Source: an uncultured bacterium (GTDB taxonomy: Bacteria; Omnitrophota; Omnitrophia; Omnitrophales; Aquincolibacteriaceae). From it: 64,000 bases of DNA. This document shows, one piece after another, positions 23,505 through 48,032 of this stretch. A program made the position numbers and the translations under genes. Every line of letters starts with the position of its first letter. The first letter of the stretch is position 1. Where the stretch lies: the NCBI GenBank assembly GCA_964385615.1, contig CAYLPP010000003.1, forward strand, positions 139,288 to 203,287. The letters run 5' to 3'. Below the pieces are notes generated by a model. The model was not told where the DNA came from. It made no database searches and was given only the letters and a program-made list of their open reading frames with translations.

Positions 23505-26500
23505 TTAAAACCGGGTGGAGTTACGTTTTAAAAATTTCAAAAAAGGATTATCACTTTGATCTACCGTCAAAAACGCTGGGCTTTCCTGAAATTTCCCAGC
23601 ATCATAGTTATTATCCCAAGAATGATACGTAAGTACTTTAGGGGAATAAATCAAACCAGATGCGATTCTAAATGGGTTCAGCGTGGAAGAAAGATTCGGA
23701 ACCGCATCTCTATAGTCAATTTTATAGCTAACGGATCCTACACCAGCTAAATTGGCACTTAAAGTCCCCCGAATTTTTGACACAGTCGTAGCATCATATT
23801 CCACGCCTGAAATATTTGTAAGCATCTGCCCTCTTTTAGCCACTTCAAGTAAAGCATTACTTAAAATAACCGTTCCCTGGCTATGAGCATCAACAGCTAT
23901 GCGATTTCCATATTTATTCAAAAAAACCAAATCGTCCGCCACTTGTCTTGAAACCGCACTAGGAATAATCGGTCCCAAAAACTTATCCAAAGCAAATTCG
24001 GTTAAATCTGCCAATATTCCCGAACTAGGATTGTATCTCACCGCAACCCCCGTACTTGCCCGGCGAATTGCATCATTCCGAGAGGTGCTAACTCCATTAA
24101 CTTTATAGAATTGAATATTAGCAAGTATTGCACGTAATTGATTAGGATCTTTTATTTGAGATTGCAGATCCTGCAAGCTCTTAAAATGGCGCCCATCCGG
24201 GAGATAAATCTCCGATCCTTGCTTAAAAAGAAACTCCTGAATCCCTAAAATAGGGAAAAGAGCGACCTGCCCTATCTTTTGCAATAGACTAGCTTGACCA
24301 TTTGGGCCTGAAGCTGTCGGATTAAAATTTCCAATTGTTTCAATAACAGATCCGACTTTATTCGCCGCGATTTTAAGAATATTAAAATTCCCACCGTCCA
24401 AATCAACAATTTTGAATAAACTATTTGCCGTATTGGAAATCTGGTAAGCAATTTTAACGCCTCCCGCTACTACTGTCTCAAAAAAAGCAGCGGTACCGGA
24501 AGTGTTGAAGTTAATTTTTTCAACAACCGCAGTAATTGGATTATTAACTAATATGGATTTAATGGCTCCGCCGGCGTCTTTCAGGAACTTTGTAACGCCA
24601 TTCTTTAAATCGTCAAAGAAGCCGAAATTTGCCTGCTGGCCGGTGGGCGGACCGTTATTGCCGGAAGCTCCAATTCCCAGGGCATTATTGATATTTTTTG
24701 CAGCATATGAAGCAACCTGGCTTCCAACCGCTTCTATGCCGACATTGGCGACTGTGCTTAAAACGCTTTTCCAGAATTCGCTCATTTTGCTTTTCTGAAT
24801 CTGCTGATCCACTTTCTGTTCAACAAGATTCAATGCGAATTTCTTCAGCGTATTAGCCACCAGCTGTGTAAACCCGCCAACCGAACTTAACCCCTTAGTC
24901 GCTCCGCTAATTAAATTTTTATAGCCAACAAGAGGATTAATCTGTTCCTTCAAGCCGTTAATAAAAGCCTGCTGAAGGTTTTGAGGTTTAAACGCCTGGA
25001 ATATTTTCTGAAGACTGCTTCCAAGATTACTTAAAGCGCTGGATATATTGTTGACCGCGCTTTGAAGAAGATTGCTTCCAAAAGTAGCCACGCTTTGCCC
25101 AAATGAGGAAATCGCCCCGCCCAAGCCGGAAGATAACCCGCCTATCACATTGCCGATCCCAGAAATGACTGTCCCGACGACCTGTATGATAGCGCCAATC
25201 ACGGCTTGAATCGCGCTGAAGACGACCTGAAGGATGGCGTTAAGAATCGCCCCGATAATTTGGCCGATCACCGGGATAAATATCAGAACAACCTGAATTA
25301 CAACCTGAAGTGCCGTCATCGCCCAGTATTTAAACAAGCCCTTAAAATCACCGCGCTCCGCGTAGTGATAAGAATTGATAATAAAGTTAAAAGGCTGATT
25401 CAAAATTCCGGAAATGAAATTCCCAACGGTTTTACCGAAGATAGCGACTGCCACTTTATTAATGGTCGCCACGATCTTTTCGATCAGCTTAATTACCGGC
25501 CTGAGAACTTCGACAAAGAAATGAACGATTTTCTTGAATAGCTTGCTGAACCAGCCGGCCCCCTTAACCTTTAAAAGGTCTGACGAAGCCAGATCGTTTT
25601 CAGGATTAAATCGGAATACCTGGGTGCCGAAACGGTAAAACCGCATCGCGTCAGAATCGTCTAAAATCGGAAGATTCAAGGCCTGCAACTGCGCCGCCGT
25701 CAAAAACACAAACCCGGTAAACAACGCGCCGAATTCCGTTTCTGAAAGCTGTTGATCAACACCGTTTTCGCGGAAAGAAACCGTTCCCCCGCTGATCTGC
25801 ACCAGTTCGACAAAACGAGTTGCCGTATCGTTTGGATCGGCAGCGTTTTCCTTAATTAAAACGGTAATCGGTTCATTGAGAGACGCAAGCGTATCGGAAA
25901 GTTCCGTGTAACTCTGCGAAACTTTATGAAGACGCGTTCCAGTTTGAACAAGCGCGAAACCAAACCATTTGGCTCGGAATTCCGCGATTGACTTAGTGGT
26001 GGTGTGACCATTCTCAAGGAAGGTCACGGTCGTATCCGTGATCGCGGTTACGACAACGTAATGGCGCTCTTCAATATTTACGATCACCGGCAGACCACTG
26101 ACAGTCACGAGACGAACCAGGTCTTCCCAGCTTAACTTAAAGCCCTGAATTCCCGCGTTATTCACCGCAGCCACGGTTTTCAAGTTATAGGCTGAAAACT
26201 GGAGGTTTCCGGTAAATTCGGGAGAAATGACCCCCGTAAGAATATCGACGAAGAGCGCTTCGGTCGTCAATTCGGGGAGGCTGGGAGCAGTTCCAAAAAT
26301 ACTTAGAATCATTTCCTGCACGGAGTGCATGGCCGACTGACCAAAATGAATATCTTCATCAATCAAGTCCATAAGTCTGGACTTAATCTTATCTAGATCG
26401 GCTGAGGTCAACTCCGCCATACTGAAAGCGGTATCCGCTTTGAGAAGTTTTAAAAGGTTCTCGAATTGCGGATTCAACGTTCCATTCGCGAATCCGAAAA

Positions 26501-48032: not shown

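Follow-up and report, generated by a model that had tools for sequence, protein, structure and literature searches.

What is a protein of 8175 amino acids (aa) for in a bacterium of the phylum Omnitrophota? The question is raised by an open reading frame (ORF) that runs unbroken, 8175 aa plus the stop codon, through positions 23505..48032 of the minus strand in a 64,000-nucleotide (nt) stretch of contig CAYLPP010000003.1 (hereafter, the window). The function of such giant proteins is an open question because the phylum is without isolates, no Omnitrophota member having been isolated so far, and because most of each protein is unannotated. We propose that this protein (hereafter, the giant) is probably a giant surface protein, exported by Sec, that follows the plan of polymorphic toxins, that is, a lectin adhesin with an exchangeable toxin tip. 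A likeness to polymorphic toxins had been noted in a preliminary description made from the DNA alone and is strengthened here by a variable toxin-type tip and by relatives that carry catalogued toxins and immunity proteins.

An exhaustive HMMER search with the last 295 aa of the giant against 1.84 billion representatives retrieved 84 homologues of the 243-aa tip, in proteins of 109 to 2818 aa; in all of those tabulated, at most a few dozen residues separate the domain from the C-terminus. SpvB-TcdB_midN-FG-GAP-RHS_repeat proteins make up the long carriers; in one short carrier, an RHS-core match (23.9 bits, below the Pfam cutoff of 27.9) precedes the domain, and in several carriers DPxGL occurs 130-240 aa upstream of the HSQG motif. 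G48, G73, D77, H118, S119, D177, P188 and H205 are invariant in the alignment of the tip, and S8051, D8109 and H8137 are proposed to form its catalytic triad. The motif set equals the published signature of Tox-ABhydrolase-2 ('NG, [DE], [KR], HSxG, D, H'; Zhang et al. 2012, PMC3482391). No Pfam model matches the tip and a sequence search against the PDB gave no match; the AlphaFold2 model of the tip is confident (predicted local distance difference test, pLDDT, 86.8). The tip is a Tox-ABhydrolase-2-type alpha/beta-hydrolase, in line with the terminal hydrolase-like domain of the preliminary description: besides the motifs, it has the fold and the C-terminal position of that polymorphic-toxin family, whereas the partner reported for the family, Imm-SUKH, is not present beside the giant gene. 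In several RHS carriers of the tip, a hydrophobic stretch is found ~190 aa upstream of HSQG.

The relatives of the giant are defined by the conserved region that precedes the tip (the trunk). Among 5.8 billion proteins, only three are homologous to the C-terminal 1226 aa, the best of them in a metagenome-assembled genome (MAG) of Candidatus Omnitrophota, and an Omnitrophota MAG is also the source of the relative P0001. A scan of 185,579 species genomes with an alignment of the trunk yielded 32 loci (best match 60% identity), nearly all in Omnitrophota/Omnitrophica MAGs, with a few labelled 'uncultured Planctomycetia'; many of these loci lie in ORFs of >4000 aa that extend past the fetched flank. 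These relatives by themselves make an Omnitrophota origin of the giant gene very likely. When the whole giant was compared with the 32 loci by tblastn, the trunk (aa 7000-7900) was covered and aa ~7900-8175 had zero coverage. L002, L004 and L005 are homologous to the giant only up to aa 7903-7905, and no trunk relative has the tip of the giant. Among 21 relatives with complete C-termini, whose last 350 aa were compared, the tips fall into several mutually unrelated groups. The tip of L013 is Ntox10 (Pfam, E=3.5e-24) and the ORF downstream of it is Imm27 (E=5.9e-14), the primary immunity protein listed for Ntox10 (Zhang et al. 2012, PMC3482391); the tip of L016 is a C92 permuted papain-like amidase (Pfam), that of P0002 is DUF4329/Tox-JAB-2 (E=1.8e-5, below the Pfam cutoff), and the ORF downstream of L005 is Imm74. 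Small downstream ORFs frequently overlap the stop codon of the relatives' giant genes, and other relatives are followed by signal-peptide or lipoprotein TPR proteins. The neighbours of the giant gene in the window show no synteny with the relatives' loci. The varied tips and the ORFs downstream of them follow the pattern of polymorphic toxins, and the trunk family is predicted to behave as such, with the tip of the giant as variable toxin-type cargo.

In distant complete relatives, the N-terminal signal-like segment and the trunk are kept and the bodies are different or Pfam-dark; a beta-helix and ILEI occur in one of these bodies, RHS repeats in none of them. Thus, the YD-lectin scaffold is specific to the subgroup of the giant. 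Two relatives, L008:13519-14286 and L029:13445-14326, have unannotated tips that are homologous to each other (35% identity); the secreted TPR-containing proteins that follow them are likewise homologous and share the ending CMGRATK.IQS.YFPW. Tips and followers may represent an uncatalogued toxin/immunity pair.

The composition of the DNA changes where the homology to relatives ends. GC content falls from ~50% to 38-42% over positions 22800-24800, and from aa 7826 on the GC content of third codon positions (GC3) is ~0.3 in place of ~0.5; it is 0.32 in the 181-aa ORF that follows the giant gene, and the GH39-like gene beyond is again at ~50%. The cassette of foreign composition, i.e. the tip together with the 181-aa ORF, appears to be a recombined toxin/immunity module acquired horizontally. 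The product of the 181-aa ORF is predicted to be periplasmic because it starts with a signal peptide (MRYFVLFICILLLSPQKGMA), and its position, its composition and analogy make it a candidate immunity protein; a periplasmic site would suit an envelope-directed hydrolase. Lipase effectors of the type VI secretion system (T6SS), known as Tle, with their periplasmic Tli immunity proteins are a functional analogue of such a pair, and the signal-peptide-bearing protein downstream of the giant parallels Tli. The GH39-like glycoside hydrolase gene (21211-22893, minus strand) lies 62 nt downstream of the 181-aa ORF, has native GC and could be linked to surface-glycan attack or be unrelated.

The module that defines the trunk family is a C39-like papain-fold domain. 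In the giant, the Peptidase_C39 match comprises aa 7279-7362 at 25-26.5 bits (cutoff 22) and covers model positions 45-127 only. The motifs HFGxSA, DILTGVI and G.L..S stand out in the family alignment (26 sequences), as does (D/R)H(Y/F)V with its invariant His, and the family profile matches the C39 peptidase domain of PCAT1 (E=1.4e-6), such that the family His aligns with AHFVV of PCAT1 and the family Glu/Asp with the Asp of ADP; this acid is Glu in the giant and Asp in some relatives. The column of the catalytic Cys, within HFGxSA, holds Ser in 25 of the 26 sequences and Cys only in L021 (NVINCA). Because the Cys of L021 stands in the same column and the spacing from this column to the next conserved Gly equals that in PCAT1, we read S7233, H7324 and E7340, on the basis of sequence alignment, as a Ser-His-acid version of the C39 triad, and the near-absence of Cys across the giant (3 in 8175 residues, at aa 7, 5416 and 5421) may be related to the Ser in the nucleophile position. 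Thus, of the C39-like peptidase fold named in the preliminary description, the fold is borne out by a profile match above the cutoff, whereas the catalytic Cys is missing, with Ser in its place. The domain resembles the Peptidase C39 domains (PCAT/ComA bacteriocin processing, the HlyB C39-like domain, Tox-PL-C39) in the PCAT1 profile match and in the aligned His and acid; it differs in having Ser for Cys in nearly all members of the trunk family and in leaving the first ~44 positions of the Pfam model unmatched, and, unlike the PCAT/ComA peptidases, it is located inside a giant extracytoplasmic protein, without fusion to an ABC transporter. Between this domain and the tip lie a hydrophobic segment, which probably forms two to three transmembrane (TM) helices, and a Gly/Ser-rich region, together corresponding to the glycine-zipper segment described previously; the closest relatives have kept both.

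The remainder of the giant was mapped by Pfam and NCBIfam searches of protein tiles, by hydropathy and by internal profile searches (Table 1). The signal anchor, Ig-like domains, YD-repeat tracts and discoidin domains expected from the first reading of the sequence were all found, and the tiles matched the LamG family as well; of the 'dockerin-like loops', one is a dockerin and another an EF-hand below the Pfam cutoff, and of 'about six' LamG domains, five are clear Laminin_G_3 copies, the sixth LamG-like region, near aa 2470-2620, having no Pfam match. The YD-repeat scaffold extends over ~5600 aa, with matches as strong as E=5e-40 in the N-terminal half, and comprises 31 repeat blocks in the internal profile; the repeats are tightly packed at aa 1240-3850 and then serve as linkers between lectin domains to about aa 6880. 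A helical repeat, NALY.(I/V)W....DLQ..F.....L..WA...GY, for which there is no Pfam match, occurs in three copies (aa 5520-5640, 6668-6760 and 6756-6894; positions 31113-31475, 27753-28031 and 27351-27767) and is also found in the relative P0001.

Table 1 Features of the giant, from N-terminus to C-terminus, and of the cassette at the 3′ end of its gene.
Feature	Residues (aa)	Position in the window	Strand	Basis and remarks
N-terminal hydrophobic segment	19-40	47913..47978	-	Hydropathy; Sec signal peptide or signal anchor
JAB/MPN (JAMM)-like domain	~105-230	47343..47720	-	E153 in HGEIVIF; HTHPNEHSAQGPSGLD at aa 183-198
Stalk: Big_13 and five Ig-like/OmpL47-type domains	464-998	45039..46643	-	Pfam/NCBIfam, internal profiles
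YD/RHS-repeat scaffold	1240-6880	27393..44315	-	PF05593 and TIGR01643
ILEI domain inside the YD tract	2271-2356	40965..41222	-	PF15711, E=1.3e-10
EF-hand-like loop	3192-3216	38385-38459	-	EF-hand_1, below Pfam cutoff
Dockerin type I Ca-binding module	3652-3701	36930..37079	-	PF00404, 27 bits
Lectin array: 7 discoidin (F5/8 type C) and 5 Laminin_G_3 domains	3858-6645	28098..36461	-	Pfam, internal profiles
C39-like papain-fold domain	7196-7370	25923..26447	-	PF03412 above cutoff; family-defining module
Triad positions of the C39-like domain	S7233; H7324; E7340	26334-26336; 26061-26063; 26013-26015		S7233 = catalytic-Cys column; H7324 ~ catalytic His; E7340 ~ catalytic Asp
Hydrophobic segment, 68 aa	7566-7633	25134..25337	-	Hydropathy maximum 2.49; kept in P0001, P0002, L002-L006
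Gly/Ser/Ala-rich region, end of the conserved trunk	7634-7905	24318..25133	-	Comparison with relatives
Putative toxin tip, alpha/beta-hydrolase	7933-8175	23508..24236	-	Proposed triad S8051 in HSQG (23880-23882), D8109 (23706-23708), H8137 (23622-23624)
181-aa ORF, 3 nt past the stop codon of the giant		22956..23501	-	Sec signal peptide; candidate periplasmic immunity protein
Low-GC cassette (tip and 181-aa ORF)		22900..24555	-	GC 38-42%, GC3 about 0.31, vs ~50% in flanks

At the N-terminus, the hydrophobic pattern ..VILVITF..WA recurs in complete relatives, with a WA/HA-type end, and this shared Sec-type signal or anchor points to Sec export. No genes of type I, II or VI secretion systems (T1SS, T2SS, T6SS) or of two-partner secretion (TPS) were found among the window ORFs of at least 150 aa, consistent with the earlier statement that T6SS, TPS and T1SS partners are absent; the accompanying statement that the export route is unknown is answered in part by the N-terminal signal kept in complete relatives. 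The next domain, at aa ~105-230, is without annotation in the Pfam/NCBIfam tiles and matches nothing in the PDB by sequence search; we tentatively call it JAB/MPN (JAMM)-like, a type for which the criterion is an E...HxH...S..D motif plus the MPN fold. The motif order at the C-terminus of the relative P0002 (aa ~800-915, Tox-JAB-2/DUF4329), GGFIL..SGSQDE..HTHPN..PSDPD..HYVV..YALDNQG, mirrors that of the N-terminal domain of the giant; phmmer did not link the two, such that the likeness is at the level of motifs only. One domain type, JAB-like, thus seems to serve in two places, at the C-terminus as a toxin tip and at the N-terminus as a module of the giant. At L034:10001-11935, and in L035, which has the same genes, the N-terminal module of the giant (signal/TM plus JAB-like domain) forms a separate ORF of 330 aa; an unannotated ORF of 304 aa comes 28 nt later, and the surroundings are of the housekeeping kind. 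Within L034 there are, in addition, an AbiEii gene and an ORF of >1900 aa that extends past the edge of the locus.

Comparison with RHS/YD polymorphic toxins (Rhs, TcB-TcC fusions and the Sec-exported 'T2SS' RHS toxins; Zhang et al. 2012, PMC3482391) shows a common layout: signal peptide, repeats, peptidase, variable C-terminal toxin and then an immunity gene, for which the giant has a candidate. Lectin domains among RHS repeats have already been described for polymorphic toxins, where they were read as an aid to contact with the target cell (Zhang et al. 2012). The tip has homologues among the cargo of true RHS/Tc proteins, and the cassette is of foreign composition. However, the giant lacks the RHS core with its DPxGL autoprotease, its YD tract is interrupted and many times the length of a cocoon, and it is ~3-5 times larger than typical RHS toxins. 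The missing canonical core ending had been noted before and is confirmed here: no PF03527 match was obtained in the Pfam tiles, DPxG[LIVM] occurs nowhere in the giant, and NF041261 (RHS_core) reaches 19 bits, its cutoff being 2000. The Ser-variant C39-like domain and the TM segment appear to have taken over release and translocation. The giant would work like a Sec-exported RHS polymorphic toxin, without the RHS core. Teneurins are evolutionarily linked to YD polymorphic toxins. The proposed resemblance to teneurins holds for the YD repeats and goes no further: EGF repeats, NHL propeller, FN-plug and Tox-GHH were found in no Pfam tile of the giant, and its context is bacterial, so a reading of the giant as a teneurin homologue was rejected.

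The family to which the giant belongs, not recognised when the sequence was first read, is that of the Omnitrophota giant ORFs, whose domain content has been published. Of 23 Omnitrophia genomes, 20 have ORFs of >20 kb, which contain discoidin, Laminin_G_3 and dockerin domains and were read as adhesins (Seymour et al. 2023, PMC10066038). The 'Dockerin-type giant proteins' have been defined with domains of the dockerin/EF-hand, discoidin, DUF1080 and ILEI types, TM anchors near the C-terminus and, in one case, a C-terminal C39-like domain (West-Roberts et al. 2023, bioRxiv 10.1101/2023.11.21.568195); a further report groups 24 proteins in a PF03412 architecture cluster and has proteins as long as 147,155 aa (bioRxiv 10.64898/2026.06.07.730766). 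The giant shares with these the length above 20 kb, discoidin, Laminin_G_3, dockerin/EF-hand, ILEI and DUF1080-type matches, few TM segments along the body, a C39-like domain and TM segment near the C-terminus, trunk relatives almost all in Omnitrophota MAGs, and a proposed role in attachment to other cells. At 24.5 kb it exceeds the criterion of Seymour et al., whereas its 8175 aa fall below the threshold of >=30,000 aa of West-Roberts et al.; it is far smaller than the headline proteins of the phylum (8.2 vs 30-147 thousand aa), and to place it among the largest bacterial proteins, as was first done, is an overstatement given reported Omnitrophota proteins of 39,678, 85,804 and 147,155 aa. 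The giant differs from the Dockerin-type proteins in having only one dockerin, no TSP3 repeats and genuine RHS/YD repeats, and in its predicted toxin end: a SecA-like domain after the C-terminal TM region had no match in the C-terminal tiles, where the alpha/beta-hydrolase is found instead.

An unlikely account, modelled on what has been proposed for Dockerin-type giants, is that the giant is purely an adhesin and surface-polymer-processing protein: the lectins would attach the cell to prey, the C-terminal hydrophobic segment would anchor the giant in the producer membrane, the hydrolase would be a housekeeping or cell-wall esterase and the 181-aa ORF would be unrelated. This account is made less likely by the tip homologues at the C-termini of RHS/Tc toxins, by the foreign cassette, which occurs in no relative, and by relatives with the same trunk that carry catalogued toxin and immunity pairs. 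Four observations nevertheless weigh against a toxin-bearing adhesin. Without its Cys, the C39-like domain could be catalytically dead, like that of HlyB; the topology is ambiguous, an odd number of helices in the hydrophobic segment leaving the tip in the producer cytoplasm, and the C-terminal regions of Dockerin-type giants have been proposed to be cytoplasmic (West-Roberts et al. 2023); the window contains no outer-membrane export partner; and the 181-aa ORF is an orphan, with no homologues beyond itself and no Pfam or PADLOC match. A canonical RHS/teneurin-type cocoon, i.e. a closed YD shell around the toxin with release by the RHS aspartyl-protease core, would explain the many significant RHS_repeat/YD matches and the homology of the tip to cargo of true RHS proteins, but is very improbable and was rejected: the core is missing, the YD tract is broken by 12 lectin domains, with length and interruptions speaking against a single cocoon, ~1000 aa, with the C39-like domain and the TM segment among them, separate the last YD repeat from the toxin, and the more distant trunk relatives are entirely without RHS repeats.

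That the ORF is an assembly chimera or a pseudogene fusion rather than one gene is scarcely credible, even though the contig is metagenome-derived, the composition breaks near the 3′ end of the gene and diverged internal repeats exist. The ORF starts with ATG, with a GAGG Shine-Dalgarno sequence 5 nt upstream, and the chance probability of 8175 codons without a stop is ~e^-419 at this base composition. Internal DNA repeats amount to two 300-nt pairs with 87% and 81% identity, and Tandem Repeats Finder detected no tandem nucleotide repeats in the gene. The trunk is collinear with the relative L002 over aa 7001-7903, and a break in composition is expected biologically at a toxin cassette. Furthermore, an independent Logan contig (L001, SRR16481187, 1.9 kb) is 100% identical to the window over the last 167 codons of the giant, which lie within the tip, the 181-aa ORF and the start of the GH39-like gene, so that these junctions recur in a separate assembly. 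The chimera was rejected on the stop-free length, the diverged repeats, the L002 collinearity and the Logan contig; no sign of an assembly artefact was seen, the ORF is a real chromosomal gene, and the single minus-strand ORF of 24.5 kb in the preliminary description stands.

For a lectin adhesin with an exchangeable toxin tip, the following sequence of events can be envisaged. The giant would be exported by Sec and then displayed on the cell surface, where the lectin array would bind glycans on a nearby cell, be it prey, host or competitor; the hydrophobic segment would insert into the target envelope, the C39-like domain would release or process the tip, and the hydrolase tip would attack envelope lipids or esters, with the periplasmic 181-aa protein shielding the producer and its kin. 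Recombination where the trunk ends, near aa 7905, would swap one toxin/immunity cassette for another. We suggest more tentatively, and with the balance tilted slightly against it, that the Ser-variant C39 domain and the TM trunk form a new delivery platform for polymorphic toxins, essentially limited to Omnitrophota, that is carried by giant adhesins whose scaffolds differ and has its cassettes swapped at a fixed junction. If so, the giant would be the first YD-lectin scaffold joined to that platform without an RHS core, and part of the Omnitrophota giant repertoire would consist of weapons for contact-dependent killing or predation, not only of adhesins or polymer degraders. The cassette suggests that some Omnitrophota giants are contact weapons, in support of a lifestyle of antagonism or predation through contact.

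Polymorphic toxins and Omnitrophota giants belong to two literatures that are joined here and were not found connected in the papers searched: a polymorphic-toxin or toxin/immunity reading was not found in term searches of Seymour et al., West-Roberts et al. and the 2026 preprint on Omnitrophota giants, and a wider literature search for both topics gave a single paper, which is unrelated. The link is made by trunk relatives with textbook toxin/immunity pairs such as Ntox10/Imm27. Every element has a precedent, the giant is of modest size for its phylum, and no new principle of biology is involved; the function of one class of Omnitrophota giants is, however, made directly testable, given handles that can be expressed in E. 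coli, namely the 243-aa hydrolase tip with its putative Ser-Asp-His triad, the 181-aa candidate antidote and the C39-like domain of ~175 aa, with a Ser and a His open to mutation.

Apart from the giant, the window ORFs of at least 150 aa represent ordinary chromosomal genes, among them those for heme biosynthesis, fumarase, ABC-F, mreBCD-PBP2-rodA, ferritin, MsrB, EPSP synthase and SHMT; PADLOC found nothing. Directly upstream of the giant gene, at 48303-51966 (minus strand), are a P-type cation ATPase (E1-E2, Cation_ATPase_N/C) and a Na/Ca exchanger; a link by calcium export between these and the dockerin/EF-hand Ca-binding modules of the giant is possible, as is coincidence. A thioredoxin-like domain fused to NHL repeats (6056-8089, minus strand) gives a weak match to TEN_NHL, the teneurin NHL model, which is unrelated to the giant ORF and could mislead a search for teneurins. 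At 13197-15134 (minus strand), uroporphyrinogen-III synthase (HEM4) and uroporphyrinogen decarboxylase (URO-D) are fused in a single ORF of 645 aa. The MsrB (SelR) ORF and the preceding alpha-amylase-like ORF overlap by 124 nt (51984-52577 and 52454-53824, minus strand); because the SelR domain begins at residue 80, the true start of MsrB is probably further downstream.

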